A stretch of DNA of 58,558 nt, counting the filler, from Dugesia japonica (taxonomy: Eukaryota): NCBI GenBank assembly GCA_001938525.1. It is 5 parts of 5 records of this genome, joined end to end, with 100 filler letters (N's around TTAATTAATTAA, not from the genome) between each part and the next. Parts side by side here need not be neighbours in the genome. Positions count along the whole stretch, not along the records: positions 9,631 to 24,814 come from MQRL01601952.1; 4 more parts are not named here. One strand, written 5' to 3'. Shown piece by piece: positions 2,131 to 54,325 of the stretch. The stretch's first letter is position 1. Each line of letters begins with the position of its first letter. A model generated the notes under the pieces. The model worked only from the letters and a program-made list of their open reading frames with translations. It did no database searches and was not told the DNA's origin. A program made the translations under genes and the position numbers.

Positions 2131-2142
2131 AAATGATAAAAA

Positions 2143-2350
2143 AAGAAAAACGCTATCCTCATTAAACATTTATTTAAGACAAAGTTGCTATCAAATAAAA
2201 AACTAATTAGAAAAGTTNNNNNNNNNNNNNNNNNNNNNNNNNNNATTATTTTAATTATTTTCTTGAAATATTTTAAATTTCAAAGATTTTATAAATATTT
2301 TAATTGCGCATATAAATTTGAAATTATACAATTCAAATATCATTCTCATA
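2143..2350 (-). repeat. 3' LTR of element B (distal end truncated)
   Basis: Matches 6155-6362; directly abuts the polypurine tract. Confidence 0.88.
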
Positions 2351-3054
2351 TCCCCCTTCTTTAAGATATTTTCTGATCTTTTCAACATTACTTTCCATTG
2401 TCCGACTTAAATCATCTCGAACCAGATATCTACGGTTATGTATGTTTTTAACTACAAAGAAAGGACCTACAAAACGATCCTGATCTTTATTTCTCGTTTT
2501 CTTCTTGATAAGCACTGCATATCCAATAGCGAAAGTACTTTTCGTTGGATACGTAACCTTTGGTATATTGTTAACCTTCTCCAGCTTTAGTTGTCTAGGT
2601 GGAAACCACCTTTCTATGCTGATTTTTCTACCAAACACCTGTTGTTTTCTATACTGTCACAATCCGAAATTGTCCGAAATGGCCTTTCTACATATCCATT
2701 CGCATTGTGGTGATAAGGACTTAAGAAAAATAGCTTAATATTCATCCCAACTGCAAATTTCTTCATTTTTTGTGATTCAAATACCTTTTCACAATCTTTA
2801 TGAATATATCTCGGAGCTCCTACCTTTAATATCCAGTAATCTTTCAATACACAAGTTATTGACTCTTCATCTTGTTTTGCTGTTGCTGTTAATAATATAT
2901 ATTTACTATTCTGGTCGAAAATTGCCACGATATATTTCTTTTTATGGAACGTTTTTGGCCATGGCCTTGCTATATCAATATATATTCGCTCAAACGGCCT
3001 CGCCGACTCGGATTTTATAGTTTCTTCTTTAGTTTTAGTTGTTACCACCTTCAC
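2333..3054 (-). pseudogene. Gypsy integrase (rve core and C-terminus), frameshifted
   Basis: RPFERIYIDIARPWP..KYIVAIFDQNSKY, SPYHHNANGYVER, RFVGPFFVVK. Confidence 0.88.
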
Positions 3055-4268
3055 ACGCTAACATGCTTTTTTTCGTGTGACATCATGAATTTTACACAAG
3101 TGCCACATGCCTGCCTTGAGAGAAAATCCACATTGACACGTTTGTCGCTCTTCTGATAATGTAAATCAATGTCTAATTCACTGAGGTAATTGATCCAATT
3201 TTGAAATTGTGTCGTTATAGGTTTCTTTGTAGTTAACCTAAACGTAATCGCCTTATGATCTATTCGTAGAGTGAATCTTCGCCCATAAAAGTAGTGACTG
3301 AAATGGTTGAAAATATAGAATATCGCCAGCAACTCCTTTCTTGTTATACAATACCCAAATTCATGGTCATTCATTGCGTGTGATCTATACGCTATCACCT
3401 TTTCTTTTCCATTGTTGTTAATTTGTGATAATACGTCACCGATTTTATTGTAGCTTGCATACATATTCGGTATGAATTCTCTCCTGACATCTGGAAACAC
3501 TAAAATTGGTGGCTTCGTCAATGTTTCTTTCATAACTCTGAATGAATTTTCGCAGCGCTGTGTCCATATTAACTTCTTATTATTAACACTGCACAGTTTT
3601 TCTAGTTCTCTAGCCTTCTTTTCGTAATCCTTTATGAATCTTCTGTAATAGCAACATATGTCAAAGAAACTTCTCAATCCTATTACGCATTTGGGCCTTT
3701 CGTATGTCTGTATTGCCACCAATTTTACTGGATCGGTCTGAATTCCTTTATCACTTATGATGTGTCCCAAACGTTTGCTCTCCTTTCTTAGCAAATGACA
3801 TTTTGACGGGCTCAAACGTGGTTCTGCTTGATGTATTTCACTAAATACTTCATCCAGTGTTTTATAATGCTCTTCCAAGTTTTCTGAATATATTGGAATA
3901 TCGTCTAAATACACTTTTGTTCCTTTTGTTGTACAAAAAACCTTTGTCATGAGTTCCTGGAATGTCCCAGGCGCTGCAGCTATGNCAAACGGCATTCTAT
4001 TGAAGCAGTATTGACCTGANTTTGTTGTAAAAGCTGTTTTATCTTTTGACTCCTCTTCTAGCTCTACTTGATAGTAAGCATTACTTAAATCTAATGAGCT
4101 GAAGAATTTCAGGCAGTCTAATCTATCCAGAATCTCTTCTGCATTTGGCATTGGAAATGCTTGTCTTTCCGTAATAGCGTTCAACCGTCGAAAATCCAGA
4201 CAGAGACGAATATCTTTTTTTCTTTTTTCCAGATACATATCAACAGGGTGTTCCATCTTGAATTGCAC
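3051..4268 (-). CDS. Gypsy reverse transcriptase plus RNase H
   Basis: RLCLDFRRLN, LDLSNAYYQV, KTAFTT, RMPF, VYLDDI, ELLAI..FSHYFYGRRFTLRIDHKAI. Confidence 0.93.
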   Translation of the reverse strand: MQFKMEHPVDMYLEKRKKDIRLCLDFRRLNAITERQAFPMPNAEEILDRLDCLKFFSSLDLSNAYYQVELEEESKDKTAFTTXSGQYCFNRMPFXIAAAPGTFQELMTKVFCTTKGTKVYLDDIPIYSENLEEHYKTLDEVFSEIHQAEPRLSPSKCHLLRKESKRLGHIISDKGIQTDPVKLVAIQTYERPKCVIGLRSFFDICCYYRRFIKDYEKKARELEKLCSVNNKKLIWTQRCENSFRVMKETLTKPPILVFPDVRREFIPNMYASYNKIGDVLSQINNNGKEKVIAYRSHAMNDHEFGYCITRKELLAIFYIFNHFSHYFYGRRFTLRIDHKAITFRLTTKKPITTQFQNWINYLSELDIDLHYQKSDKRVNVDFLSRQACGTCVKFMMSHEKKHVSV

Positions 4269-4477
4269 TTTAGTATAATTCTATTTTCAAAAAAATTCCG
4301 TACCCCTTCGTTTATCTTATTCTCAAAGTTCATAGGTGTCCTCCATGGCTTCCTTCTTTTGTTACTTTTTTATGCTTCACCAGTTTTGTGCATCCTACGT
4401 CCTATTTGTCTGTCATAAAGATATTTGAATATTTTCTTATCAACTTTTTGGTTGTGCAATTTTCGCATGTATTTATC

Positions 4478-5080
4478 TCACTCAGCTTTTTGACATCTTT
4501 TTTCATCTGTAATAATCCTTCCAAAATGCGACTCGATACTGCAAATCTGATCTTGATTATATCTTTTTGCTGTATCTATCCAATGTAGTTCTAATCCAAA
4601 ACTGGTCTGCAACTCAATGCAAACAATTATGCTAGGGATTACTTTTTCCACAACTATGAAATTAATCCATCTAGTCAAAATGTCGATCCTCACTTCCACC
4701 TAAAATCTTCCTTTGGTGATTAGTGAACTGTCGTTAGCGCACCGTAGTCTGTTCTTGGCTGTTAATAACGAGACATCCTTGAATTTGTTAAACACATCCA
4801 AACCCATCACATTAATTCTTGCTACGGTATCCAGTAGGCATTCAAACTCCATGCTTTGGATCTTTATAGCAATACTCGGTCTACCCTGCATTATATCATA
4901 TCTAACAACACCTTTACCCCATTCTTTCACTGTTGCGAAAGTTGGTTCCACTGATGTTTCTCCCTTGATTACTGATATCTCTTTCTTAAAAAAATTAAAA
5001 AATCGTTCTTTGACCTCATCTTTTATATTATTGATATGACTACTTTTACTATAACTATTGATATTTTGGGGATCACCCAT
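4478..5080 (-). pseudogene. Gypsy aspartic protease (disrupted)
   Basis: FECLLDTVARINV (DTG-like active site), LRCANDSSL; in-frame stop at about 4700. Confidence 0.8.
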
Positions 5081-5099
5081 TAGATTTGGAGTTCTACGG

Positions 5100-6110
5100 C
5101 TCCGACCATTTCTCCTGTTAATGGAGCCTCTCCTTTTGGGTTACTCCTTGATTCATATACGTTTGCGTCATATATATTGCTACCATATCTAACGTCTTCA
5201 TATCTGTCGTCCTCATATTTCTTGTTACGTGTCTCATCATCTCCACTGCATTGATGTTAACATGTCTACCCGGATTTGGGATCTTTTTTACCTCATTTTT
5301 CTTATAATCCGAAGGATATTCGTTCCATCTCTTGTACTCTATCTTTGTGAAACAGTTTTCAATTTTATGACCGCTTTTGTTGCATTTTCCGCCCTTTATC
5401 TTGTTTCACTGTTTTCTTATATGCCCTACACTTCCACATGCATAGCATGTAGGAGGCTTTCTGTCTGGGCACTCCCGACTTATGTGTCCTAATTTGTGAC
5501 AATTACAAAATTTTACTTTCTCTGTTTTGAACTCTCTTTTGGAATTTGACCCTTTGAAGGTTGATTCCTGCATCATTTGTATCGTTCTTTTTGGTTCCGT
5601 GTATAATACCTCCTTATAGGTACACATCACGGTTATTCTTTCTGTCTTTTTGGCGATTCTTTAAATGTCTCTGATAGTTTCCTTTATTCCTTCCGGTTAA
5701 GAAGCTTTTTTCATCAGAATTTCTTTCTTTGCCTTCTTATGTGCCGTTGCGTTTATCAGAAGTGTTGATATTACCGACTCTTTTGACAGATTATGTCTAA
5801 GCAGTTTATCTGCCAGTTTTTCTACGTCGTGAAAGAATACCTCATTATCAGTATCACCCTGCCTGTAACGAATTCTTCAAGGTCTTCAAAAACGTCTCTT
5901 GGTCTTTCCACTAATAGTCGTAGCCTAGCTTCATACCCCTTGAATTTGTTCTCTGATGCTTCATATCTTTCTTCAAGCTTCGGGTCAATCATCTTACTGA
6001 TTACAATTTCTGGTAAATCTTTGGGAGTTTTGGCCACTTTGAAGAATCGACCGACATCCCCCAAGAATCTGTCCAGATTGTCGCCTAACTTAAAAGGTCT
6101 CGGGTGTAAC
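5100..6110 (-). pseudogene. Gypsy gag with two CCHC zinc knuckles
   Basis: FCNCHKLGHISREC and CYACGSVGHIRKQ; N-terminal LHPRPFKLGDNLDRFL; frameshifts. Confidence 0.8.
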
Positions 6111-6154
6111 AAATCTGTAACTAATTTTGAGCCTGACGTGGTCGTTATATTAGC

Positions 6155-6362
6155 AAGAAAAACGCTATCCTCATCAAACATTTATTTAAGACAAAGTTGC
6201 TATCAAATAAAAAACTAAATAGAAAAGTTATAATATTCAAACAAATNNNNNNNNNNNNNNNNNNAATTATTTTCTTGAAATATTTTAAATTTCAAAGGTT
6301 TTATAAATATTTTAATTGCGCATATAAATTTGAAATTAAACAATTCAAATATCATTCTCACA
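6155..6362 (-). repeat. 5' LTR of element B
   Basis: Begins TGTGAGAATG at 6362 on the minus strand and matches 2143-2350; true 3' end lies somewhat left of 6155. Confidence 0.88.
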
Positions 6363-8074
6363 CTTATATGTACGGAAACAAAGGATCAACACTACGAAAT
6401 AGTCAATAAAGTATTGACAGAAATTAAGAATGCTAATCAAGGTGTTATTCCGGAGAAATGCCAATTCCTACAAAACGAGATCAAAGTTTTGGGACACACT
6501 ATCAGTAAAGAAGGTGTCAAAACAGATCCAACTAAAATAGAAGCAATTAGGAATTTTGGCAAACCAAAATGCGTTAAGAAGATGTGAAGATTTTTGGCAA
6601 TTTGCAATTACTATCGCTAAAGATTATTCGAAAAAAAGCTAGATTGCTGGAACAACTGTGTAGTGGACCGAATAACAAGAACATTGAATAGGCTAACAAA
6701 TTAGAAGACGTTTTTAATGGAATAAAAGAAGCATTAATGATGTCTCCTATATTATTTTTTCCAGATATAAATAGAGCATTTATTTTGGTTTCAGATGTAA
6801 ATTTCGACACGATTGCAGCAGTACTTTATCAAAGAGACAGCAAGGGACAAGAAAGAGTAATTGCATATGGATCACACGCAATGACGAGTCATGAGAAAGG
6901 ATATTGTACTACGCGGAAAGAATTACTCACAATTTACTACTTTTGTATTTATTTCAAACATTATTTATATAGAAAAAGATTTATTCTTAGAATAGACCAT
7001 AAAGCTATCAATTTTATGTTGAATACCAAGAAACTGATCACATCACAGTTTAAAACCTAAATTAATAATTTGAGCAGTTTAGATAGAAAATTAGATTATA
7101 GAAAACGAACGCTTCATACAAATGCGGGTATGTTGTCAAGGAGTAAATGCAATACATGCACAATCCCTAACGTCACATGAAGATCGCAAGAGTGGGAAAT
7201 TAAAAATAAAGATGTTAAATACAGTAGATATCTAGGAGAAGCAAGAAAATTTTGGAGAAAATGATGAAAGAACGTGGATACCTAATAGAAGAGGTTATAA
7301 TGAGGATACACCATCTATTATGTCATGCTGGAACAGAAAAAGTAGCCACGTGTGTAAAACATAAATATAACACGAAACATTTGTGGAGCAAAGTATAACA
7401 TGCCAGAAAGCTAAAGTGTTGACAACAAAAACGAAGGAAGAAACGAAAATGACACAGCCAGCCGATATATTTGAGTTGTTATTTATAGATATGTGCGGAC
7501 CACTTCAGGTAAAAAGAGGTTGAAAAAGATATGTTCTCGGTATAATAGATCAATGCAGTAAGTATGTAACCTTGATAGCAATGGTAAGACAAGATGAAGA
7601 TACCATACGGAAAGCAATAATGGAGAAGTGGATATTAAAGTTTGGGTGTCCGAGAGAAATTAGAGTTGATTGTGCAATAGCATTTGAATCTAAATCAATG
7701 AAAGATTCTTGCATCTAAACATTGCATCGGATGTATTGTCAGGGATAGAATTTTCCTTGAATGCCTCAAAACAGAAGACCATAGGGAAAACCCCAGCTAA
7801 AACCGTATTTGGGGAGAGAATAAGCAGAGAAAAATAGTACGAAACATATTCTCAAAGAGAGCACAAAGAGCAAAATAAAGGGGTACTAACCAAAATAAAA
7901 TTCAAGGTCATTGGAGAGATCATAATGAAAGTTGAAACTAGAACCAAGATCGCTATAAAGAACCCTATAAAATCAAGAGGAAATTTCATGGCAAATGTTA
8001 CATCCTGGAAGATACGAACGGAAAATGTTTTTTAAGTAACGTAGAAAAGATCTAAAAATTTCTTAAAAAAGGGA
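6363..8074 (+). pseudogene. Degenerate gypsy element A, 3' part: RT C-half, RNase H, integrase
   Basis: LICTETKDQHYEIV resumes RT just after the YxDD position; PILFFPD..KELLTIYYFCIYFKHYL; HHLLCHAG; LFIDMCGPL; PPT AAAAAAGGGA at 8065-8074. Confidence 0.87.
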
Positions 8075-8650: not shown

Positions 8651-9631
8651 TAACATGACATTTGAAACTAAACTATTTACGCGAGCTCCTTTTTGTTCGA
8701 TTGATTGTCATCATTGATTGGTAGTGGTACACTATTCTTTCTAGTTATTAATCAAAAACCGTGTTATTCTTCAAGGAAACTTTGATACTTCGAAATATTG
8801 GCGTTCAGTAAAAAAAAATTATGATTGAAGTTACAAATTATTTGATTTTTTAGTACACAAGCTCATGGAACTATTTTTTACCGATCAAAATATTTCTGAA
8901 TAAGTAATAATTTTGTTGTTAATTGGTTGGTTTTATTTTTTTAAAAAAATTTTAAAATCTACTCTTGTATGAATTTTACAGCGTTATTCTGATTTTATGC
9001 GAATTACTTCAATCAAATTCAAACTTGTGTATGTATGTGTAATAATAAATTAATTGAAATTCTCGTTTATTTATGCAGTCTTCAGTTGCATATATTTTTT
9101 AATTGATTAGTTTGCAGATTCTCTGTCTTTAATTATAAAATTACTGAAACTACCCAATACAAAAGTCTAAAATCGTNTCATGAATATTATTGATATTTTC
9201 GTCGTCTTTCTGTATGCTTATAAACAAAAAAATAAGAAAGTTCGTTATTTAAATAATCAAATTTAACAAAAAAATACCAGATCAAAATATTTATTTGTAA
9301 TAAATGTTTGATTAAAATGTCAGTCAGCTTATCAAATCAGTTTATCTAATCCTTTTTTCTATATTGTTTATTATCGAATGGATTTGTTTCACATTTACTT
9401 TCATTACCAGTGCAAGGCTCTGAAATTATAATTTAATTTTCAAAAATTGAGATTCTTATATTTATTATTATTGATTATTATTCTTATTATTGATTATTCT
9501 TATTATTGATCATTATTATTGATTATTATTNNNNNNNNNNNNNNNNNNNNNNNNNNNNNNNNNNNNNNNNNNNNTTAATTAATTAANNNNNNNNNNNNNN
9601 NNNNNNNNNNNNNNNNNNNNNNNNNNNNNNA

Positions 9632-11710
9632 CCATAACGTTTTTCTTATACTCCCCGTCTAATGATCTCATGATTTGCTCTGTTGTTCGAAGATGTAGAT
9701 GTGAGAGTACTGAGGTTTTAAATAAAAACAATCTCTCGCTTTCAAATAATGCCACTTCAGTAGCACCACCAGGTTTTAATCCATAGATGTAAATGGGCTC
9801 GTTTACCTCTTTTTTATTAACAATTTCAACTGGTGAACAAATTATATATTGTTCGAGTGGTTTTGGCCATTTTAGCTTATTCAATGCTTCTAATAAGGCT
9901 TCCACCGTTGTATTCTTTAATGACAATTTTCGAGGAATATTTTGGTATCCAAATCGGTGATTGTATTTAGATATTTGTTCTTCCATCAAATAAGCCAAAT
10001 TCATACAATCATGTGCGGGTTTTATCGCTTCCATCGCACTAATTTTATAATCAGTCGTAGTTGACTCTTCTAAAATTTCCTTTTCAAATTCATCGATCAT
10101 AAACTTCCATTTTAATTTAGTTGTCACATCTATTTGTTGTTCTTCCAATTGTTGCCGCAGATACTCTTGTTTCAATCTTTCAAAAGTTTTCTGCTCCTGA
10201 TTCTGCGTCTCTTGTATCATATTTATTTGATGTTGAGTTTTGGCTCTGCTATTATTTATTTCCTGCTTTAATGCTTCATTTTGCTGTCTCATTTTCTCAA
10301 TTGTTGAATTTAAATTTGGTTTTGCATTAAAGTTATTATAGTTTGTTTNATTACCGTCGTTCCTGAAGCAATTTCTANTAATATGTCCTGACTTATTACA
10401 TATATAACATACCGGTGGCTTGTTCTGAAAACAAGTTTCTGCACTATGTCCGGGTTTCTGGCAAATTGTACAAATTTTTATTGTTTTTTCTGGCGGTCTA
10501 GATTTGCACTCTCTTGCTCGATGTCCAATTTTTCCACAATTATAACAAGTCATATTTGATGATTGCCAGTTCACTTGTTTGTTGTTATTATTATTTTATT
10601 TAAAATTATTCGTTTGCCATCTCGTATTCACAGATGATAGTGACTTCAATAATGACTTAGCTCTTGGTATAAAATCAGATACCTTCGGAGCATCTTTAGT
10701 CTGTTCATCTTGTTCTTCTATTTGGAACACTTTACCCACTTTTGGTTGAAGAGCGTCAACATTATGACATACTCTTGCTGAATTTATGGCCAACTCTACT
10801 GTTTGTGGTTGAGTTAAATGCACATGTCTGCATTTCTCAACCCTTTTATAAATGCTCCAATTATAACTCCTTCAATTATATTATCTCCCATAGCTACTTT
10901 CCGAAATCTTAGCAATTCAGCCGCATATGCTTGAAATGATTCATTTTTATGCTGTCAACTGTTCATAAAATCTTGCATCTTCTGACCTTGTAATGCAGGT
11001 GCTTTAAAAATATCTAATAATAATGTTTTAGCCTCTTCCCATTTTTTCACTTTATCTTTTCAGTGGCTTTATCCCAATAAATAGTTTTATTAGCTCCAAC
11101 TAAATACAGTTTCTAAATACGCTCTACAGCTGTTTCATCCCTCCAACGACATGCATTGATATGAATTTCATAATTTGGGATGAAATCGAGTATTTTATCC
11201 GGATCTCCGTCATATTTATCACCACTGAAATCAGTTCTCCATTCTTTGCGTTTATCGTCCAAATCCGATTCATGTTGTCTACTATTAGACGACATTTTAT
11301 TTAATTTTTGGATTTTTTCTTGATCGCTTAAATTTTCCGCATCACTCTTTGATTCCGAATTTGGTAAAAAAAGCGACACAGGTACTGCAATATTTGCTTT
11401 ATTGGCTATTGAATTATCACTATATTCACTATCTGTTATATTTGTATCTACTATCTGATTTTGATTATCAATATTTGACTCTGTTTATATATTTTCTCTT
11501 GATTCTGAGGATTCCCTTGTTATTGTCAAAGTAAAGCAGTTAGGTGATTGATTTGTTTCTGAGGATATTGGCGTTATAGATGTCCTTGATTCCTTTCTTG
11601 TAAGTGATGATGCTCTTTGGGATTTTGGTTTGTGCTCTTTTCTACTTCCAACAGTAGATCTTGTATAATATCTGGGCTTTTCCGAATTTTCAATGGCTAT
11701 CGTAGTATAA
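9632..11710 (-). pseudogene. Long gag-like gene with capsid-like domain, three CCHC knuckles and a coiled-coil C-terminal extension (element C)
   Basis: KYDGDPDKILDFIPNYEIHINACRW (retrotransposon gag start), PQTVELAINSA, CYNCGKIGHRAREC / CTICQKPGHSAETC / CYICNKSGHIxRNC; split over ORFs 11113-11379, 10596-10823 and 9579-10574. Confidence 0.85.
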
Positions 11711-14700
11711 CAGTTGTATTGTTCTCTTTAATCTACAATATAATAATATACTGTCCTTTTCCCTGAAATATAAAATAAAAGCTTCTCGGCCTATGCATAT
11801 TAATTAACAATAAAATAATCAATTAGCTTTAATCTTAACTTATTCATTTTTACTAATTCCTCTATTCAGTCTCTAATCTTAGAATTAATGCTTATTTCCT
11901 AGTTTTTAAAATGATACTACATTTTATGAATTATCAAATTAACTCTTATAATCGAATTTTACACCTATTAATTTATTATTTTTCAATACTATTCAATCTA
12001 TGCTTAAATCTTATGTTATCTATTTTCTTAAATAAATACTAAAATGTTTTTAATTTAACTCAATCTTTTTAACTGGCGCTTATGCAGTTTATTATACTAT
12101 ATTTTATTTATCGTTTTAATTTATTCATTTATTTTCTTATATTTTATATTGCACTCTGATTATTACAAATTTTTTTAAATTATCTCTATTTCGTTTGCTT
12201 CTAATTTTACTTTACATTTGTCAAGATAATATTTCAAAATTTCTCTTCTTCAAAATTAAAACCTTCGATGCTCTAAGTTTGGTTTTCTCGAATTTATGCG
12301 TAAGTTCAACTAGATTCTACGATCCTTACTCACATTGGGATTTTCTTTCAAATCTATTTTATTCTTCTTCACTCCAAGCACTAATAACNGCTTGATTTTC
12401 TCTCATCCTCCTAAAATATCTGCGAGTTTTCTTTCAAACTCAAGGCTTTCTTTCCAAGCCCATTTCTGATTTCCGAGTTTTCTTTTAAACCAAAAACTTT
12501 CTTCCAAGCTCATTTCTAAGGTTCTTCTTCACACTTAGCCCCAAACTGTTGTGTACTTCACATGAATTAAACTTTCATAATTTTTCAAAGATAATTTTCT
12601 CAAGTTTCCAGATTCCCATAAAAAGAATACTGCTTCTAAAATTTCCAACAAAACCACTTCAAATTCTTTTCTTTCCTTCCGCTAAATTTCTAAAATTTTC
12701 AATAATAAAATGATTATGTGAAGTACCCATGCTAACATAAACAACGCTCCATATCAGCATATATGTGATAAAGACTTCCAATCTGAATCGATAACACCCT
12801 GCTCGCAAACTCTAAAATTTCGTAATATAATTCCACGATATAAATAATCTAAAATAATTCCAATAATAATTCGAGTTTTCGCTATTCAAATGAGCTACAT
12901 ATGTACCCTACAAATGTATTTTCTTGGCAGCACTGAAACTTTTTGCGGTCAATTAAGATTACTCGGATCTCATTTCGGGAAGATCCCATCCCAGACTTGA
13001 GAAGACCCTTCTCAAATCTTAAAATCCCTAGACGAACTTCGAGCAGTAAATCCGTAAGGGAGGACTACGTGCGGTCCCATACGCCAAATGAACTGCCTGG
13101 ATGGTCGATCCAAAAAAAATGTATCGTCCACTCATTACTGCCGGTGCATATCATTGTTCACATTACAAACACATTCTTCCGGCCTCAAAAGATGAATTCG
13201 AGAGAATTTCGAGTTCCCACGCTGCTTATGCGTGGTGACGCAGCTCACAGTGAAACTCCAAAGAAACACCTACTGTCAAAACAAAAACATTTTTACCTCG
13301 AGGTAGCTTTCCATAAGTCTAAATTGTTTCGTCAATCTTCGTCATTAGACAGCCATTCTCGTTTTCCTCATAAAAGGTGATCAATCTTCAGATTCCAAAC
13401 TACTGACTGTGTGCCCTAATTTCTTAGATCAACTCCCCAACTATTGACGCCTTTAACATGGTTCATATCGGTGATCCTATAGTTAACTTTTTATAACTCC
13501 TAGGTCTAAATGTTACCCAATCGCCCCAATCTTCGTTCATTCAATTGACCAGTTTCGATAAATTTTATTCTACCTGTGCCGTCTGTCCAATACCCTTCTT
13601 GCACTACCTGACTAAGTGTGATTTCAATAAGAAAAATAAAATTAAAATCTTCAAAATTCAAAATTTCTTCCAATCTTCCATTTACTCATCTTAATATATA
13701 TTATCCACAATTATTCTCTCAGAACAATCTTAATTTCTTCAAAGTGCAACATTTGTTGAAATCACAATTTATTTTCCAATCTTCAACTTGTTTGGGATAC
13801 AATGAAGCTTCTGTTGAATATTCATTTAACTTTTCCAATTTTCTGTTACTGAACTTTTTATTTTTATTTCTGATTTTTATTATTTTTCTTTTTTGTTGCA
13901 ATTTCCTATTAACAAAATTTTATATCTTTTTATCATCACTTTTTCCTTAAACCAGTATAATCTTCCTTCAAATGCCATAATACTTTCTTTTAATTTACTT
14001 ATTTTACTGCTCTACATCACCTCATCATTAATGTACTATTAATTATCAAAAGTTCATTTTACATTTAAATAAAGTAACTCATATTTTCACGTTTTATTGA
14101 TTTATTATATTTATTCTTTTCTTTATGATCTATCCTTATTAATATTAATTTATTTTATTAACGTGTTTATCCAATTCAAATGTTAATAAAACTTTATTGT
14201 CACCCAAATTAACATTTATTACCAAGTATTTCAAATTCCGCAAATTTTATTTTCCCTAAACGTTTATTTGTTTATCAATTCAAAATTATTGTCATTGCCG
14301 CTTGTCAAAATTTTTTTTTGTCAAGTCCTAATTATTAGTTAAGATTTCACTAATATTACTTAAACATTGTTCAAGTTTTAATATTATTTAAAATTATCAA
14401 TTAATAATAATATATTCGAATAAAAATTCATTACGAGTTGCCTGCTTCTTAATTTCATACCCACCTTTTATCTTTCATAACCAAGTAATCTGAAAATCAG
14501 ATATTAAGCAATTTGCCACTTTAATATTTTACGAAATTAATTAATAAAAGGTATCCAAAGATATTAATTATTAATCAAAAGGTATTCAATTTAAATATAT
14601 TAAACTGCCAGCGATTTAAATTATTTATCGTTTTAAACAAAAATCTTCAGTTAATCGCAAAGTTATATTCAAAATCATTCATTTTCATCAGATAATAGTC

Positions 14701-15016
14701 AAAAGGTATTCAAAATGTCAGTACTATATTCAAATTGTGCCATTACAGTTTTGTCACAAAAATTAACCAACAAAAAAAATGATTATAAATCTTTGTTTAT
14801 CACTAAACTCTTCATAATAATATCTTTGTTGTTGTAAACAAACAATTTCAGAAGTTTTAAAGAATTTGTAAGGTAAAGTTTTCAGGAGAATTCTCGCGAT
14901 TTCGAAGGTTTTTCAACACAAATTAACATCTTGGAGAGTTATATGAAGGAAAAATAACATGCTAAATACTTTATTTAAAAATAACTGAAGTTATTGATTA
15001 TAAACAACAAAGTTTG

Positions 15017-15277
15017 TCAGACATCCGAAGACAAATCAAATCGCATTTGTCTTGGGCGCCGCAATCGTTCAAGGTCGTCAAGTTTCTCTTTTTTTCCTTC
15101 TCCTTCAATCAATTTCTCTAGTCTTTTTGCCTCTTTGTCTTTATCTTTTAGAATGTATTCCATTCTGGCTACTCTTTCGGCCAACCGGCTCATCTTCATC
15201 TTAAGATCCTTGATCGTCTTTCTTAACATGACAACCTCTTTTTCCAATTTCTCATTGCTGCTCTGATAAAAAGCCAC
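15017..15277 (-). CDS. Small coiled-coil orphan protein in the element C leader
   Basis: Intact 86 aa ORF with heptad pattern (LEKEVVMLRKTIKDLKMKMSRLAERVARMEY); higher GC than flanks; AATAAA downstream at about 14970. Confidence 0.45.
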   Translation of the reverse strand: MAFYQSSNEKLEKEVVMLRKTIKDLKMKMSRLAERVARMEYILKDKDKEAKRLEKLIEGEGKKEKLDDLERLRRPRQMRFDLSSDV

Positions 15278-15283
15278 GCGTTG

Positions 15284-15493
15284 TCAGCGGGTGTATTCGA
15301 GGCACCTCTGGATGGTGAGCTTTGTAATGAGCCTCCGATATACGGGCCAATGGACCCAATATTTTCCATCCTGGTCAATGAAGTCATCATCAGTATCGCT
15401 ATCGGGTGGACTGCGCGTCGGGCTGGAGTTTGGCAGGGTTCTGTCTTTTGTTTGCTTATCTTGGCTGGTCATTCTACAATAAACATTTACCAT
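15284..15493 (-). CDS. Small orphan protein (S/P-rich, acidic) in the element C leader
   Basis: 69 aa, GC-rich; separated from 15017-15277 by one in-frame stop, so possibly a single gene originally. Confidence 0.4.
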   Translation of the reverse strand: MVNVYCRMTSQDKQTKDRTLPNSSPTRSPPDSDTDDDFIDQDGKYWVHWPVYRRLITKLTIQRCLEYTR

Positions 15494-17069
15494 TAAACAC
15501 TGGTGTTACATACGCATATATCAAACCAACGATAGATATATAACTTATTATATTGGGCTTGTAAATAATTGAAAAACAGCAAACCAACACAACTTGTAAA
15601 CCCGACCCAAAATTGAAACTTCAATTTAAGTTAAATATTCAAGGGTAAATAATTCTATCATCAACTTTCATTATGGTTAATAATAATTAACATTATCTTT
15701 TTATTCGAAGTAGAACAATTTTATATCCAAAAAGGAACCAATTTAACTATGTTAATCCACATTATCTTTAACATCGTTTTAAGGTAAATCAATATTAAAT
15801 AATTTCACAACTAATTTCAATTTTCTTTTTCTAATCAGTATTAAAAACCACATTTAAAGGTGTATTTCATCATTACTTTGCAACACTTTAATATTTTAAT
15901 ATCCCAATTCAATGCAGTCTATTGTTATGAAAATCTGTGTTTCATTTCATTTATTTTAATTATTAAAATTTAACTTTCAATTTTAATTAATCATTAATTA
16001 ATCAACTGATTATCTCTAATTTTATAATTTTTTTTCTGTGGTTTAATACATTTCTACCACAAAATTTCCGATCTTAGTACTATGTCGACTGTTCAGTTTG
16101 ATTATTTCTTATTATTATCTCTTATGCTACTTTTTAGTCAAAACTCATTTCATTGCTTATATCAATACTCTTATATTATCATCCCAATTTATTGTCACTC
16201 TATCTTACATTAACATTTTATACAGTGTCATTTTTATTGCTTCATAGTCAAATTTATCTTTATCGTCATCAAGATTCTCTGTTATCCCTCGTTTTATTTT
16301 TAAGTGTTATCATTATTTAAAATTCCTCATAATACCCTTCAGTGTTTGACTCAAGTTTCAGTATTATTTTAAAATCATTAATTAATAATAAAAAAATAAA
16401 ATATGATCATAAATTATGACGAGTCACTTGTCTCTTCCTCTCATACTAATTTTTGTTCTTTATGACCAATTGGCAGAGAATCATAGCTCAAGTGATTCGC
16501 TACATAATGTTAAGGAGTATATTGAGTGTATCAAAAGGTGATATTTCAATTTAAGGCGAACATTCAAAGTTAAAAAATAATTTTGTTCTCAATTTAAATT
16601 ATGGTTAATCAACAATAGCGCTATCTTTTCATTTAAGGTAAAACCATTCTAGTTCGACATAAATCAATTTAAACTTTGTTAGCCAATAAATAATTTCAAT
16701 ATAAGTTTAAGCTGTATCGATTTTTTACCAGAAATAAATCTTTTTTAATCAACATTAACTTCAACGTCATTTTTAAAGCAAATTCATTTTCAATAACAAA
16801 ATGTTCTATTATCGATTTTATTTTATGAGTAAATTTTTAATATCAATTAGTTTCTCATTAATTTTTATTTATGATCATCAATTCCCACTATTAAATTTAC
16901 GGGTGCATTTTATCAATTATTAAAACTCATTTTCATTTATGCCAACACTTGTCATATCTACTTGTTATCTAAAAATTAACAAAATGTCAAAACAAGGTTT
17001 GATGAGAATGATAACTTATTTGATCCCACAAAAAAAATTTTGTTTTGAAATGTAAAAAGCAAATAAGCG

Positions 17070-17087
17070 ATCCCGGTTGAGCCCCCA
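17070..17087 (-). promoter_or_regulatory. Primer-binding site complementary to the tRNA-Pro 3' end
   Basis: Minus strand TGGGGGCTCAACCGGGAT, 16/18 identical to the MLV-type Pro PBS TGGGGGCTCGTCCGGGAT and including the CCA complement. Confidence 0.85.
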
Positions 17088-17090
17088 AAA

Positions 17091-17186
17091 AGTAATATTA
17101 ATAATAATAGTAATAATAATATTAATAATGATAGTAATAATAATAGTAATAATAATATTAATAGTAATATTAATAATAATATTAAT
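17091..17186. repeat. (TAA)n-like simple repeat at the expected 5' LTR position of element C
   Basis: AGTAATATTAATAATAAT units between the PBS and the truncated capsid gene. Confidence 0.6.
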
Positions 17187-18337
17187 GCCGATGTTGTTAA
17201 AGCTTTGGCAAACTTGATGTCCAATCTCAAATTTCCTTGTTGAGGTAATTGACTCTGATTTATATCGAAATCTGGAGCAAGAATAAATGTAAAGAAAGGA
17301 TAATTATCCTTAAAATCTTAAAGTGTTATTCCACAACTCATATTCTTTTCCAAATATCCCATATTTCTTACTATAGATTGCATATTTTTTGTAGCATAAT
17401 TATCGTTTGACAAAATCTTGAGTATATATTTCTGGATAATCAGTGTTTTTCGTCAAGGAAACGGACACAGCATCTAGATTTTAAAATGTTGAACTCTATC
17501 TTTTATAGCTACCATTATATTGTTCACCACTTTGAAACGTAAACAGAATAAAGCTAGGTAATCGACGATCACCAAAGATTTGTTCCTTATAAAACGATGA
17601 ACTATCTTTACTAATTGCAAATGCAACGACTTACTTGGCTCTTATTGGATAAACAGCATTTTGATTTTTTAGACCCATTTGATGAGCAATTAATACTTAG
17701 GGCTCAACACGTACATGTCTAACCATTAGTTTTGCATCTAGTAATACATATTTAGGTTGATTGGCTGCAGATTCCAAACAAATATCAGCCTCTGCTTGTT
17801 TCAATCGAATATGAACATTGACAACAAGAATAAAGTATTTCGGTAGATCCATGAAATCAAGTTGCAATGAACCGCAAGAGCCAATTGTTTTGATATTTTA
17901 ATAGACTTTTTTTTATCTGCTTCTGATCTATATCCCATTGCTGAAAGACAAATATTTTTACTATCACCATTATAATTTATTATAGTTACAATTATTGCTT
18001 TGTGAAGATAAGATCCATTTCCACCCTCAATTTTGAAATTATTAAACGAAAGAATTACATCTTTAAAAAGAGTATGCAGCATATAATTACTAGGAACTGC
18101 ATCATGAGTGTCAGTCAAATCTTTACCAGCCTTATCAACCACCTTCAAGTTAATATACAAAAAAGTATCATTCAAATCCAAATATTCTCTTTGAGATCCA
18201 TTTATAAAAAACTCAACGTCACTTTGTGATTCAGAAATTGCATTCATAGGAAAGAACTCTTCGAAAGTAACACTTTTAATTACAGCTTGAGGAGATGGTC
18301 GATCAAAAATACATAATTTAGTTTTAGCGCAAATCAT
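17186..18337 (-). pseudogene. Polinton major capsid protein (double jelly-roll), frameshifted
   Basis: LCIFDRPSPQ..EFFINGSQREYLDLNDTFLYINLKVV, PSNYMLHTLFKDV, and C-terminal GNLRLDIKFAKAL match the Polinton MCP pattern. Confidence 0.88.
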
Positions 18338-18779
18338 TTTTCAAATATTGTTCCATGGCCTCTCATTCGTTTGTTTATACGTGATCCATAAATTTTCTTA
18401 CGTTTTCTATTATTTTGTAATGTCGTGACTTGATTTGTTAGCATATTAGTTATTTCAGATGATATTTCATTAATTATAAATTTTGCGGTAATATGTTTGC
18501 TACTTTTGGAATCATACTGGTTACTCCACTAGGTAATAATGACATATCATTTCCAAGTTCAGCTAATGCATTTGATTTCAATGTGAGTAATATTTTTCCG
18601 TCATTATCTAGTACATCCTGAGCTGTTTTCATACCAAAAGAACCAATACGTTTAAGAATCGGTAAAGCAAATCTACTTATTGTTCTCAACCAACCAGATC
18701 CATATTACTTTCCAAGAAAGTAAGATAATTTTCCGCCTGCTTGACTAGTACTATACAATGAAAAAATATCAGGATTCAT
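18334..18779 (-). pseudogene. Polinton small virion core/amphipathic protein (QxGG, YGSG motifs, basic tail)
   Basis: MNPDIFSLYSTSQAGGKLSYFLGK*YGSGWLRTISRFALPILKRIG...RKRKKIYGSRINKRMRGHGTIFEK; its stop overlaps the MCP ATG. Confidence 0.7.
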
Positions 18780-19802
18780 TATTTAGTTTTCTAAAATGTA
18801 AAGTTAAATGAGTTTTTGAATGTTTTGGAAACTTGATTAATTATCCGTTATCATCACGTATATTAATGTCTATATTGTTTATACATGATTTTGCAATAGA
18901 TAAATACATTGGATTATCAACTATTAATTGTACTACTTCATAGGTTTCATGCTTTTCTATCCATACTGCTTTCAATAAATGTACACTAACATCTCTTACA
19001 ATTATAGGTTCAACAAGACTACTATAGATGAACATTTGCTTATGTAATTTCATTATTTTCGATTTAGTAATAGCATTGAACTGACCTCCATTCATATCTT
19101 CAGGAGCATATTGTTGTTTGTCTAATCCCAATGTTTTTGTCAAAACATTATCAAATACAACTTTTTTTACATCATCTTGTAGTTCTAATTCAAAATATTT
19201 ATCTGCATTTATAAGACATTCCTTAAATATTTGAGTACAATTTTCCGTCAAATATTTACTTAATTGTTCCAATTCTGATATGTAAATATCATCTCTTAAC
19301 TGAACAGTATGATAATTCACCATTGTATTAGCCACTTTAATTTTTAATTTTTGAACTGTTTCATCATTTGTAAAGTTTGTATAGATATGACCGAACTTTT
19401 TTGTTTATTTGTTAGATTTAAATCCTAATCCAAATGAGTGTGCGATATTTGCATCTTCAAATATTACAACATATGGAAAATCACAATAAAATCTTATGAG
19501 ATTATTTTCAAATATTTCAAAATTTTTATTTTGATCAACACTAAGAGTTTTTACCTTGTTATTTATTGTTACAGTTATTTCATTCAATATATATATTTTG
19601 CAGTCATGTATTCAATTTTCGACTTGCTATATACCAGAAACGGTGAATATAGAAAGGTGAAGTCCATCGTGGCAAATTCCCAACCACCATCCATATAAAT
19701 AGGATTTTGTAGCTCGACAATGAATTTACTAGCATTATTCTCAGGATGAATAAGTGGACAGCTATCACCCGGTAATAGTGTCTAGAAGTTACTCGATTTC
19801 AT
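18769..19802 (-). pseudogene. Polinton minor capsid (penton) protein
   Basis: N-terminal LPGDSCPLIHPENNASKFIVELQNPIYMDGGWEFA; C-terminal MFIYSSLVEP..PMYLSIAKSCINNIDINIRDDNG..THLTLHFRK. Confidence 0.85.
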
Positions 19803-20820
19803 TTGAATTTTCTTCTTGATTGACTATTTGTGATGCCAATATCCAACTTGGTTTTTCGTATCCATGCCACTTTACGTAGTATTGTTTATTTTTTCCTGAT
19901 CCTTTTGATTTGATTATTGCTTCTATTCTTTATATCTCTGGTGGTAGAATGACTTGTAATTCTTACTCATAGAATTTTCCTTGCACGATATTAACTTCAT
20001 AATCTTTAATAACATACATGACCGGATTTTTGTTTTTGTTATTTGAAATACTTCATGACTCCAATTACTATTGAAATTCTTGATAAATGGTGAAGCTGAT
20101 ATCTTTGAGATTCTTACATGATCGCCAACTTTATACTTTGGTTTTTTATTTGCTTTTGAATGTTTTTGCAATATCCATAACTTTAATTGATCTTGCTCCA
20201 TTTAATTCCTTATGACCAGAATGATTATAACTATGAATAAGTATCAGTAAAACATTTATCCAAGTCTTTTTACCAACATGCACAAAGTACTTTTTCAATG
20301 CATCTCTCAATGTGCGATTAAATTTCTCTACATGTGCAGCTTTATACTGAAAGAATACACTATAATGATTTATGGATAGATGATTTATAATTTGTTTCAC
20401 CTTGGAATTGTGAAATTCCATACCCAAATCCGTTTGTAAATTATCTGGATGCCCATTTTTAAACATTGACTTGATTGCTGGTTCCATATCATTAGCAGAC
20501 TTTGATTTAACAGGAACAGCTCTTGCAAATCTACTGAATATATCAATAAATGTCAAAATATACTCGTATCCTTTATTAATTTTTGAATATGGAATAATTT
20601 CCATTAGATCCATTTGCCATAAATCATCAATACCATATGTTTTATATGCTCTTGTTGGAAATCTTTTCAACATCGGCTTGTTCAGGCTGTACGCTAGTTG
20701 TCCAGATAACCACTTTTTTTTCTTTCTTTTCGTTTTTTGAGCTGCTTTCATCAACTTGTCTACGCCTCGAAAACCTGCTGGGTTTTTTGGATCCGTCTAT
20801 ATTGTTTTTAGTTTACCCAT
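19789..20820 (-). pseudogene. Polinton retroviral-like (rve) integrase with C-terminal chromodomain
   Basis: DDLWQMDLM, YILTFIDIFSRFARAVPVKSK, LQTDLGMEF, VEKFNRTLR, PKYKVGDHVRISK, YYVKWHGYEKPSWI; a few stops and frameshifts. Confidence 0.93.
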
Positions 20821-21324
20821 TACTACAATTCGATGCAAATTTTAAGTCAAAATTTGGTAATAATTGCAATCCGCCCATTGTTTATTAATATATTAGTCAA
20901 AAGCTTTAATTGTTTGTTTAATTTGATAGACTGCATCATTTATTAATCTCTACATCTAGTTTTTTCTTTAATTTACTCATAATTTAGTATATTGTTTATA
21001 ATTGAAAGTTAAAAACACACTAAAAATTACGTGCCTGGGAAATTTTTATTAATAAATGCAAGTTAGATGCAACATATATACACTAAAATCACATGCCTGA
21101 GAATTTTTATTGATTTTTTCAATAAATCCAATAGGTATGCAACTCAGATGCTACTCATATGCAACACACATACATTGAAAATCACATCCCTCTAAATTTT
21201 AGACTGCCCAATTCCTTTCAAAATATCAAGACAGTCTCATAACATGCTAAATATAGAAACTCCCCATGCTAAATATCAAGACTGCTCCATCTCATACATA
21301 AATATAAAGTCTGCTATAAAAATT

Positions 21325-21446
21325 TTAATTTCCCGTGCAAAAATAAATTTTTGAATTTCGCACCAAAAATATTTTTTGAATTTCCCGATAAAAAAAAATT
21401 TTTGAATTTCCCGCCAAAAAAAATTTTAAATTTCCCGTCAAAAAAT
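21325..21446. repeat. Five ~24 bp subterminal repeats TTTTGAATTTCCCGCCAAAA (E2F-like core)
   Basis: Units read directly upstream of the integrase. Confidence 0.75.
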
Positions 21447-22349
21447 AACAAGACTGCCCTTTTCCCTGTTCGAAAAATATGAAAACACACACTTACCAGT
21501 CAAAAATACTCACAAAATACTCAAAAATGCCATTACTTTCAAAAAATTCATCAATTTAAGCAAAAACAGCATTTTAAACCAAAATAAAGATTTCAAAAGA
21601 TTATGACATCATACCCACCCAACAGAAAAATTTCAAATAATTATTTAAAAATCTGATAATTAATTTTCTTTCAACACATAAAACTCTCTCCGTCCCGAAA
21701 TTTTTTTTAACACATTTAAACTACTTTCAAAAATCAACCAATCAAATTAAAGCTCTTTAAATAAAAATCAAAGCACATTCGACATACTAAATCTTCTCCA
21801 TCACATTACCTTTGTAACAACATATCTACCATTCAAATCCAATAACACACTACAAACCTAAAACCTCTCAAAAAACACACCACAATAACTCATACGACAG
21901 TTCCGTGGAACCACTACCCTTCTAGCGAAGACCATCCATCCACACCATAAGTCCTTTAAACAATATATAGCCCAAATTTTGGTCCAACAACAAACAAATC
22001 TAAAAAACTTTAAAAATTATTTCCAAGATCTCCAGCTCCTCCTCGAGTCCAAAACCATTATTTCACACACGCCCACAACCACACACATAAACTCAACTTA
22101 ACCTACTTTTTAAAAAGCCCTTAACAACCCAAACACAAAAAAATTTTAAAATTTAGAAATACACACACAACCACAGGATCAAAAAAACTGATCCGATCAA
22201 AAAAATTTTGATCCTACAACTCTTAGAAAAAAAACTAACCAAAAAATCATAACACAATCGTAATGTGTTACCGAGCTCACCTGCTTCCGGGGGGTTCATC
22301 CTAAATTGTGCTAGTGCGCTAATGTGCCGTAAGGCCACTATTACCTACT

Positions 22350-22635
22350 TGCGCCAATATTGTGTTTTCCAGATATAAACAAAAAATTTATATTATATAC
22401 AGATGCCAGTTTCGGTAAAATAAAAGCAATATTGCTACTGAGAGATAAGGAAGGAAGAGAAAGAGTTGTTGCCTTTGGATCACACTCAATGACAAGTCAT
22501 GAAAAGGGATTACTTTATCACACGAAAGAAGTTATTGGTTGTTTAATACTTCTGTATGCATTTCAAACATTACTTGTATGGTAGAAGATTTACTTTTAGA
22601 ACAGATCATAAAGCTCTAACTTTCATGATTAAGAC
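22350..22635 (+). pseudogene. Gypsy RNase H fragment
   Basis: APILCFPDINKKFILYTDAS..VVAFGSHSM..HFKHYLYGRRFTFRTDHKAL. Confidence 0.85.
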
Positions 22636-23968
22636 AGTAGATGGGTAGTGGGAGTCATAGCCAGTACCCATTCAGTAACCCCCTCCCCGTGACATAAGGA
22701 AATTTAATCTTAATGCATTTTGTTGGGAAATTGAAAAAATGATATCATATTAGGTAATATTACGAAATGGGATTAAGTGGTTATAGATTTTCCTGTGTAT
22801 TTAGTTGAGAAAATATTTTGAACAAAAATTATGTAATAACATTAATTTCATCGTCGAGATTTTTACGTAATAGGATTAAGTGCCTATACATTTTCCTGTA
22901 GTTTTACTTTGGAAAATTTTTCAAGCTTATTAAGCGGCAAAGTAACTATACATTTCCCTTTGTTTTAGTTGGGAAAATTTTTCAGAATTTCTAGGCAACA
23001 ATATTTTTTTGAATTTTTAGTTGGCAATTTATTCGGTGGTAAATATGGGTAGGTTTTGGACAATTTTGCTAATTATTTACTCGGTTTAGGTAATATTGGT
23101 AGAATCTTTCTCACATTAGTCAGTTTTGGTCAGTTTTTGGACGATTTGGGCAATTATTTACTCACAAGGATCAGTTTTAGGTGAATTTTAATGATAAGTT
23201 TGGGTTGAATTTTAAGGAAATTCATGTGAAAAGTTGAATTTGTTTAAATTTTCAAGTTTTTTAAAATTTTTTAGGGAAATTATTTATAGGAATCCTGGCA
23301 AACCATTCATGTTGTTTAAATAATATGAAAATTTAAAATTTTTTATATGAAATTTTTACGGGAATCCGGGTGAACAGTCTAAAGTTTTGAAAAAATATGT
23401 TCTATATATCAGATTTTAAAGATTTGTATACCAAACTGCTGAGAATTTTTCACAAATAAAAAATTTTCGAAAACATTTTCCTTCTTAAATAAGTTAAGTA
23501 TTTCTTATATAGACAATTTTACGCTAATTCCAAATATGTTAACCTAAAATCGCCAAAGTTAATATTCTATGAAATAAATTGCGTTTTATAATGAAAAAAT
23601 CTCAAATTTTGAATTTTTATACTCAATTTTCTCTGCGTACATAACTCGTATGGTTTCAAATTTGGTAGTATTTTACTCAAGAGGAAATAGTGACTGTGTA
23701 AAGTTAAATTATAGTCTCGGCAAAAATGCTTCCTGACGAATATGTACAGTCGTCCTCCCGGATTTGGTAACATTTTTCGAAAATACCAAAAGTACCTCAA
23801 AATTTATCAAAATCGATACTATTTGATAGGAACGTTTACAGTGAGTACGAATAACACAACAAAACATCATCAAACCTAATAGATAAAAAGTTATATGGAA
23901 AACAAGTACTTAATTTGGGAGTCTCCAAGAAACAGAAAATAGTTTAATAATTTACTTGATTCAGCCTT
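22636..23968 (+). mobile_element. Truncated left arm of the non-coding Polinton-derived family
   Basis: Starts AGTAGATGGGTAGTGG; long blocks match 41575-43163 (e.g. CTCAATTTTCTCTGCGTACATAACTCGTATGGTTTCAAATTTGGTA). Confidence 0.82.
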
Positions 23969-24403
23969 CAGTCAACAGTGATTAGTGCTCAAGAGAGATA
24001 AGATTAGACTATGAAAAAGATTTTGAATCATGAGTTATGAGATAGTTTACACTGAAGCTAAATAATAAATTTTGCTTTTCGAGTGCAAACGGAGAAATCG
24101 AAAGCAGTTCAGGACATTTCAACATTTCATTAAGGCAACAATCACGAAAGAAAGACAACAGATTGACCGTTCTTTTTCCGGAAACCGGATTTACAATGAA
24201 CGCAACAACGCAGAAGATGACTGTAAAGATCCCGGCTGAGATTTTATTTGGAAAGAAAATTAGCAGAGAAAAGTGGTATGAGTCAGACGTTTCAGATAGA
24301 ACTAAAGAAAAAATAAAATTAAAGTGTAAATAATAAATGTACAATAAAACGTTTGGAAAAGATTTTAAAGAAACAACACATGGAAAAGAATCAAACTGGA
24401 TAT
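23969..24403 (+). pseudogene. Gypsy integrase C-terminal fragment
   Basis: MNATTQKMTVKIPAEILFGKKISREKW, similar to the integrase tails of elements A and B. Confidence 0.7.
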
Positions 24404-24814
24404 AGTAGGGGGATAGTGGCGCACGGTCATCAAAATTTTTAAGCAGTTATCGAGGGACCCCCCCCTCCCCTCGGGGGGCTCGGAAACACATTCCGCTTGA
24501 GCTGCGTTTTTTTAACTATGATTTTTGTGTTGATTTTTTTTTCTAAGATTTTTGGGATCAAAAATTTTTGATCGGATCAAATTTTTTTTGATCGATTAGT
24601 TTTTTTTGATCCTGTTAGTTTGAATGTGTGTATTTTTAAATTTTAAAATTTGTGTGTGTTTGGGTTGTTAAGGTGATTTTTAAAAAGTAGGTCAAGTTGA
24701 GTTTTTGTGTGTGGTTGTGTGTGTGTGTGAAAGTGTGGGGAAATGAGAAGGAGGAGCTGGAGATCTTGGAAATAATTTTTTTGAGGTTTTTATGATTTGG
24801 TTGATGTTGGACAA
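24404..24814 (+). mobile_element. Polinton terminal inverted-repeat segment
   Basis: Starts AGTAGGGGGATAGTGGCGCAC; 24517-24814 is an inverted, diverged copy of about 21980-22251. Confidence 0.78.
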
Positions 24815-33900: not shown

Positions 33901-34695
33901 GAAATCCCGATTTACATTTTCATCTAATTAAATTTATTCTTGTAAATTTTTTCCAAAATATAAAAATATGGTTTCATTGTAATAACATAAAATTTTATTA
34001 AATTTTATAACTTTTATATATCAATGTTATCGATGTAAATTTTAATTTCGTTTAAAAATCAAAAGACAATTTCAGGATTTTCAAAAATAAATTATTAAGC
34101 TTGTTTAAAAACGAGTAATATACCATCCGGTACGATTTATTATTCAAGTGAAAACCATTAATAGGTTAGACATCTCAAATTTCAATACACTAAATTTGTT
34201 GCCTTTGATTGTTTTAATTATATAATTAGTAATGATATTCTCACACGTTCTACCAGCTTATTTCCTTGTTAGTTTATGTGTTAGTTTATATCAGTGATTT
34301 TCAACCTGTTTTCCACGGAACCCCGGGTTCCTCAGTCTCTAGTTAAAAATTTTGGTTACAATTTTTTAATAAAAAATATCATTATTCTTTAACTAGTTTA
34401 TTTCACTCTCCACGTTTTCGTCTTTTAGCTTTAATTTAAAATTTTGAGCACATCAGTGTTTTTAATTGAAATTTTAAAGCCTAATTCGAAAAATCACAAT
34501 TTTTAAAATTTGTTGAAATTTTATGAAAAAAATTGGGATCACACAGAAACAAACATACACCACTGAGTTTTTAATATATAAATAATTGAACAATTGGGGT
34601 TTGAATATATTTATTGAAAATTTTAAAAGGTATAATAAAAAGTCACAATTTTTGAAATTTTATGAATAATATTGCGCACAAACAAATATACGCCA

Positions 34696-34736
<41 letters not shown>

Positions 34737-44800: not shown

Positions 44801-44829
44801 AACCATTAACTGAATAATTAATAGGTAAA

Positions 44830-54318: not shown

Positions 54319-54325
54319 ATAAGAA

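Follow-up and report, generated by a model that had tools for sequence, protein, structure and literature searches.

Burro (Burro1-4/GYPSM1) is a giant gypsy-type long terminal repeat (LTR) retrotransposon of planarians. In the accessible text of its description, the element has a retrotrans_gag domain, three CCHC zinc knuckles (in Schmidtea mediterranea), an Smc motif, a 4,873-aa ORF1 and an internal stretch as long as 25 kb; in D. tigrina, it carries an upstream accessory open reading frame (ORF) of MATH_TRAF type (PMC6431247). Its features further include Ubi2/SUMO-like and MATH_TRAF domains and, within one ORF of about 4,900 aa, BCL2, env, dUTPase, reverse transcriptase, integrase, BIR and ankyrin; counted with its LTRs, it exceeds 30 kb. 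BURRO1 is described as transcribed and PIWI-repressed in planarians in the part of PMC8532177 available to us. A further set of six S. mediterranea elements of GAG-ENV-POL, HSV/gB type, Smed_errantivirus_1-6, spans 14.5–18 kb, with the primer-binding site (PBS) given as 'none' in the available text (PMC13524379). In Drosophila, the MDG1 group (412, mdg1, Stalker and Blood) has small translated ORFs, sORF1 and sORF2, upstream of gag, as far as the accessible text goes (PMC11952523). Here, we analyzed a stretch of 58,558 nucleotides (filler included) joined from five parts of the Dugesia japonica assembly GCA_001938525.1, hereafter the window. We found that the span from 17087 to 9633, on the minus strand, is probably what decay has left of the 5' internal portion of a giant gypsy LTR retrotransposon of Burro/GYPSM1 type, a reading in which Burro was compared by description only.

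The span holds a tRNA-Pro primer site, a leader of 5.3–5.8 kb and a broken three-knuckle gag, is common to many genomic copies, and probably represents 7.5 kb from the front of such an element, in damaged form. Since the window contains no pol for the three-knuckle element, we infer its giant size; the visible part is the 7.5 kb up to the gap at 9630. The window GC of 28.6% agrees with AT-rich planarian genomes, which supports an element of planarian type; the S. mediterranea genome is given as more than 70% A/T in the accessible text of PMC11410931.

An 18-nt Pro PBS had been proposed in the initial annotation of this DNA, and our results bear it out. The sequence TGGGGGCTCAACCGGGAT has a single match in the whole window at up to three mismatches, and none of 100 shuffles yielded one. 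Judged by its letters, the site is the complement of the tRNA-Pro 3' end plus CCA. The T-arm/acceptor motif complementary to it was found at 99 metagenome loci, which come from other organisms and not from the host. ARAGORN named tRNA-Pro at 61 of these loci, Ser or Gln at 3 and no tRNA at 35, and we assigned the PBS to tRNA-Pro because of the 61. No tRNA gene was found in the window and no exact PBS match in the viral contigs searched, and the PBS 3' motif is absent from supplement 1 of PMC13524379, as far as that source is accessible.

A three-knuckle gag starting near 11700, with the PBS more than 5 kb upstream, had also been claimed, and both points hold. The gag frame is open from 11727 and its first in-frame ATG lies at 11295, giving a PBS-to-gag distance of 5,343–5,775 nt. 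Between 11727 and 10596, at least six stops or frame changes interrupt the frame, compared with a shuffle mean of 15.1, and 0 of 200 shuffles were as low; because the lesions are far fewer than in the shuffles, we regard this region as a decayed gene. Retrotrans_gag (PF03732) matched at 11053–10820 (E = 3.5e-6, above cut-off), and zf-CCHC (PF00098) matched with E = 4e-13. Past the knuckles, a long helix was predicted over residues 8–94, with pLDDT values of 87–96 over residues 11–60 in a single-sequence model. This predicted coiled coil, a generic feature, gave no Smc family match. The frame then stays open for 321 codons up to the gap. The model of the gag tail was poor past residue 92, and no PDB match was obtained at E ≤ 0.001. 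A protein search with the gag C-terminus found 0 of 687 candidates related, and the viral contigs searched held no locus related to gag. When 1.84 billion representatives were searched, the C-terminus had one match, to a hypothetical protein with tandem repeats, which was dismissed as chance. Atlas leads scored 0.78–0.79, below the reliable range, and led to clusters with ubiquitin or Rad60-SLD on 15–38% of members.

Two lines of evidence support the co-linearity of the leader with its neighbors. Within the leader, modules A1/A2 and B1/B2 are diverged duplications scoring 98 and 103 bits; 100 local shuffles of each peaked at 45 and 58 bits, and 24 other window pieces at 54. The duplications put PBS-proximal sequence on both sides of ORF-A, a candidate accessory gene described below, and link the parts of the leader with one another. 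The minus strand is also continuously A-rich, with A at 0.39 in the leader and 0.42 in gag. A tandem repeat of about 50 bp lies in the leader at 12397–12563; close to it, loose ends and a skip of 47 nt occur in other copies, which suggests that its length varies.

The other line comes from other copies. Contigs of four public runs (X1, X4, X6 and X8) were aligned to 10379–17092 at 80% likeness; run X8 is possibly RNA, which is a guess, and its cover was not counted as expression. All 30 bins of this region were covered in each of the four runs. In X1, 1,135 of 1,814 aligned contigs were less than 95% alike, and most are therefore other copies. A near-identical contig, with one other letter, had a depth of 9.5 in X4, compared with mostly 1,400–4,500 at gag sites, where depth is no copy number. 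Run-on into unlike sequence made up 2–6% of the aligned contig matter in X1, X4 and X6 and 11% in X8. Divergent contigs chain ORF-A to 16.3 kb (15347–15666, 15492–15992 and 15876–16316) and cross from gag into the leader (11175–11786 and 11236–11814). Nowhere were many molecule ends listed together; of 1,628 loose ends, 24 were listed, and each of these consisted of one to five contigs. The initial annotation had assumed that PBS and gag are continuous and suggested mapping other copies, among which gag might lie next to the PBS. The mapping done here with contigs gave 54 joints; 15 of them were listed, and not one of these links the PBS end to gag. Multi-copy cover, the duplications and these joints support the assumed continuity, although no contig spans it. 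Taken together, the co-linearity of PBS, leader and gag appears supported by sequence, though not proven.

The initial annotation had also placed accessory genes in the leader, including a coding-like block at ORF-A. One such candidate emerged from our analysis, ORF-A itself, which is present with one internal TGA at 15286–15284 and is probably a real gene. No other ATG-started frame with one stop or none is as long; 3 of 300 local shuffles matched it in this respect, and 1 of 200 shuffles equaled it in a minimum-lesion test. Its C-terminal half encodes a predicted five-heptad leucine zipper with the best score across six leader frames (0/200 shuffles). Pfam gave only generic coiled-coil matches, below cut-off. 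An acceptor-like TTTATTGTAG stands 1 nt before the ATG at 15472, although 19 loose AG-then-ATG sites were listed over 11.2–17.1 kb. Several points weigh against this gene. The length test was one of eight variants tried, and the five-heptad score was devised after the zipper had been seen. A stop-neutral codon model that recovers 18 of 20 training frames does not select the ORF-A frame, and a protein search with ORF-A found none of 678 candidates related.

The GC-richer leader blocks noted initially were confirmed, with GC of 0.41–0.51 at 15040–15439 and 0.35–0.47 at 12840–13639, against about 0.18–0.30 in the spacers. The block at 12.8–13.6 kb gave no Pfam match and no Rfam match at E ≤ 1. 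RNA folding of the leader reached a lowest z of −2.7 among 106 windows (20 shuffles each), which is not persuasive. A co-oriented decayed frame claimed at about 12.9–13.9 kb was not supported: the minus-strand minimum-lesion path was 11, the null mean being 12.3, and shuffles did as well in 71 of 200 cases. A weaker test favored the frame, the fewest single-frame minus stops being 14 against 19.2 (24/500 shuffles). The longest stop-free frame in this region lies on the plus strand (12937–13377, 147 codons) and was reached by 32 of 300 shuffles. An antisense gene at 12885–13900, plus strand, would have 5 lesions against 8.8 (5/200 shuffles), and its core at 12885–13600 gives 41/200.

A number of observations weigh against a single Burro-type element. 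The leader is spanned by no single contig, and among the 32 listed pieces (of 5,484), stretches such as 12454–12940 and 16796–17092 are unbridged. At listed sites in 16.2–17.0 kb and 14.05–14.35 kb, depth is roughly one-tenth of that at gag, ORF-A and the GC block (in X4, 80–405 and 233–537 versus mostly 1,400–4,500). This varying depth, lowest near the PBS, together with the missing spanning contig, would suit an origin of PBS end, leader blocks and gag from separate repeats or subfamilies that were nested within one another or brought together through recombination or mis-assembly, in which case a long leader is not the family norm. The locus is moreover one where transposable elements (TEs) are piled up, and breaks in the assembly occur at AT arrays elsewhere. 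We consider such a composite origin unlikely, as no pile-up of molecule starts or ends was listed, divergent contigs bridge several borders, duplicated modules flank ORF-A on both sides, and the A-richness runs throughout leader and gag. The shallow sites fit fast-evolving spacers between conserved blocks; GC bias of the libraries, or a 5' part confined to a subfamily, would fit them too.

The kinship to Burro faces its own difficulties. Burro's pol, env, BCL2, BIR and LTRs would lie outside the window, and the searches with the gag C-terminus and ORF-A matched no named element, in collections that included no Burro gag or leader sequence. A ubiquitin-like reading of 9950–9633, made by eye, drew no support from Pfam, PDB sequences or a second Atlas search. 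The initial annotation had seen an unusual, unrecognized animal lineage here. A separate, undescribed giant LTR lineage that only resembles Burro would explain the lack of a match, and the Pro PBS and zipper gene were not found in the Burro descriptions searched, as far as these are accessible. However, the gag layout, long internal region and upstream accessory ORF have all been described for Burro/GYPSM1 in the available text of PMC6431247, and the null protein searches covered proteins of up to 2,000 residues and cannot reach one of about 4,900 aa. A novel lineage therefore seems improbable, and a Burro-type copy with decay is likely the better account. Still less probable, to the point of being very doubtful, is a non-autonomous family of LARD-like type (large retrotransposon derivative) that kept PBS, leader and gag, lacks pol and was moved by autonomous partners. 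It would agree with the absence from the window of a pol for the three-knuckle element: the pol at 2333–5140 was ruled out, having its own two-knuckle gag (5406–6181) and protease, and the two gag pieces do not align. Against this stands the frame running open into the gap, as a long polyprotein would, and the gap explains the absence of pol.

The initial annotation had missed that no LTR body lies directly 5' of the PBS in this copy. In its place stands an AT array that terminates in ...ATTACT, 3 nt ahead of the PBS, and that may be an LTR tail remnant or a recombination or assembly junction. On its other side lies a broken major capsid gene, with 51–73% identity to ten proteins of 406–409 aa. 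The model of one relative, P0002, matched the major capsid proteins of iridovirus, PBCV-1 and virophage (E = 1e-12 to 1e-8). The capsid alignment ends at residue 382–385 (of 406–408), exactly where the AT array begins; the last 22–24 residues were found nowhere in the window, and the viral contigs searched held no locus related to this gene. Because an rve integrase sits 2 kb beyond the double-jelly-roll capsid gene, we identified the flanking element as a Polinton. Either the remainder of the Polinton was deleted along with almost the whole LTR, or a mis-join at the AT array arose in assembly; three gaps of the window are flanked by AT arrays. With gag broken and the 5' LTR likely lost, the copy is dead.

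Table 1 Features of the retroelement span and its immediate flanks
Feature	Position	Strand	Basis or remark
Assembly gap	9531–9630		three-knuckle element not found on the far side
Polyprotein continuation, open into the gap	9633–10061	minus	reading frame
Long predicted helix (coiled coil) past the knuckles	10062–10322	minus	structure model
Three CCHC zinc knuckles, CX2CX4HX4C, at 10547, 10472 and 10409	10368–10547	minus	motif and Pfam
gag N-terminus and capsid region, broken	10596–11727	minus	at least six stops or frame changes
GC-richer block at high depth in other copies	12840–13640		contig depth, composition
Leader module B2	14101–14624	minus	internal duplication
AATAAA about 40 nt past the ORF-A stop	14970–14975	minus	weak: one of 27 in 11.7–17.1 kb
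ORF-A, probable accessory gene	15017–15493	minus	158 codons from ATG 15493 or 151 from ATG 15472
Leader module A2, just upstream of ORF-A	15609–16023	minus	internal duplication
Leader module B1, 61% like B2	16098–16602	minus	internal duplication
Leader module A1, 62% like A2	16534–16933	minus	internal duplication
PBS TGGGGGCTCAACCGGGAT	17087–17070	minus	complementary to the tRNA-Pro 3' 18 nt (15 nt + CCA)
Complex AT array, period 6/12, 94 bp	17093–17186		occupies the expected place of the 5' LTR
Polinton/Maverick-type double-jelly-roll major capsid gene, broken, outside the retroelement	17187–18340	minus	protein matches and fold
rve integrase of the flanking Polinton	20149–20796	minus	E = 9.6e-11

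The window is gapped, abounds in TE fragments and includes a host filamin gene, whose exons occupy 26582–37644 on the plus strand (Pfam Filamin in seven ORFs). A separate compact gypsy element was found at 2333–7060 on the minus strand, with a two-knuckle gag, protease (PR), reverse transcriptase (RT), RNase H (RH), integrase (IN) and an SH3-like tail; another RT/RH piece, lying on the plus strand, occurs in the same interval. The left part of the Polinton, comprising the rve integrase, intervening ORFs and the truncated capsid gene, occupies 17187–22350 on the minus strand. At its left end, near 22348, an AGTAG terminus-like motif was noted by eye, and this end abuts a gypsy RT fragment (22354–22635) similar to 6746–7026. 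Inverted repeat arms with 72–89% complementarity, about 2.3–2.5 kb apart, lie at 22061–24732. An element of about 5.3 kb at 41575–46878, with inverted termini of more than 500 bp starting AGTAGATAGATAG and internal 31–32-bp tandem arrays, is related to 22.7–24.5 kb and is likely a non-autonomous Polinton-ended or foldback element. Another Polinton piece is likely represented at 51819–55665 on the plus strand, where part of a protein-primed DNA polymerase B (PF03175, E = 2e-8) has long ORFs as neighbors. AT microsatellites adjoin assembly gaps at 9462–9530, 26101–26143 and 34696–34736, and a TTAATTAATTAA linker lies between N runs in four gaps.

In the LTR-retrotransposon cycle, a host tRNA primes reverse transcription at the PBS. 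By the same cycle, intact copies of this element would make an LTR-to-LTR genomic RNA primed by host tRNA-Pro. ORF-A and the gag polyprotein would be translated from processed mRNAs, because scanning through 5 kb of ATG-rich leader is implausible. ORF-A could be made from its own short mRNA, either spliced or early-polyadenylated, given the acceptor-like site before its ATG and the AATAAA after its stop, and its product may be a small regulator that pairs with itself. For the gag polyprotein, the source would be a different splice form, with its entry point near 11.75 kb. In the present copy, the 5' LTR has likely been lost through deletion or mis-join at the AT array.

As it stands, this locus matters little: it is a dead piece of a kind of element that is already in print as the LTR retrotransposon of record size among animals. 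It offers three checkable additions: a tRNA-Pro primer site, a leader of duplicated modules and a zipper-type accessory gene. None of these was found in the Burro literature searched; the original Burro paper of 2018, together with its supplements, lay outside that search and may contain them. Should the zipper gene prove to be expressed and conserved, it would provide a handle on the processing of a 25–30 kb retroelement RNA in planarian cells. More tentatively, and with rather low odds in our view, the Burro-type leader might carry an undescribed accessory gene system. Such a leader would have grown by duplicating an AT-rich module of about 1 kb, each copy serving as a splice/expression cassette for a small gene. 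One of these genes would encode a regulator with a leucine zipper, whose function would be analogous to that of Rev/Tat-type accessory proteins in complex retroviruses. The LTR would end in an AT-microsatellite-like tail (...ATTACT) that recombines with other AT-rich elements.

Among the described systems, plant Ogre/Tat elements resemble this locus as large LTR elements with one or two extra ORFs, and differ as a plant lineage with an internal region of 11–13 kb and a size that comes mostly from the LTRs, according to the accessible text of PMC6431247; our analysis yielded no evidence of kinship to them. The initial view that ORFs 5' of gag are known mainly from Ogre/Tat elements overlooks Burro (PMC6431247) and the sORF1 and sORF2 of Drosophila MDG1 elements (PMC11952523), both as described in the available texts. 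The MDG1 group is alike in being an animal gypsy group with ORFs 5' of gag, and it makes a short accessory transcript upstream of gag, which ends at a poly(A) site after sORF1 and provides a precedent for an early-polyadenylated ORF-A transcript. By contrast, MDG1 transcripts are about 7 kb and unspliced, sORF1 is a predicted helix-turn-helix of about 110 aa and sORF2 a hydrophobic helix of about 70 aa, as far as the accessible text goes (PMC11952523), whereas ORF-A encodes a 151-aa zipper in a leader of more than 5 kb; no homology is implied. The Smed_errantivirus_1-6 elements, compared by description only, are likewise planarian gypsy elements, with spans of about the size of the Burro ORF. 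Their PBS entry neither supports nor contradicts a Pro PBS because the method may explain it: in the available text, 3-kb flanks and an LTR distance of at most 14 kb were used, which would miss LTRs farther apart (PMC13524379).

Burro itself is, by description, the closest of these systems. The accessible parts of PMC6338049 and bioRxiv 10.64898/2025.12.11.693146 make no mention of it, and its description in the available text of PMC6431247 gives no primer tRNA and no leader modules. The present copy differs in being broken, without a 5' LTR and cut by a gap, in showing no MATH, Ubi/SUMO, BCL2, env, PR, RT, IN or BIR, and in that its upstream ORF encodes a zipper, in contrast to the MATH_TRAF type of D. 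tigrina (PMC6431247, in the text available). It agrees with that description in having retrotrans_gag, then three CCHC knuckles, then a coiled coil (Smc-like) in one long frame, and also in the probable accessory ORF upstream of the main ORF; the presumably very long internal region and the presence of many copies in an AT-rich genome would suit it too. Taking a 4,873-aa ORF out of a 25-kb internal region leaves some 10 kb to be shared by leader and trailer, which fits the leader seen here.

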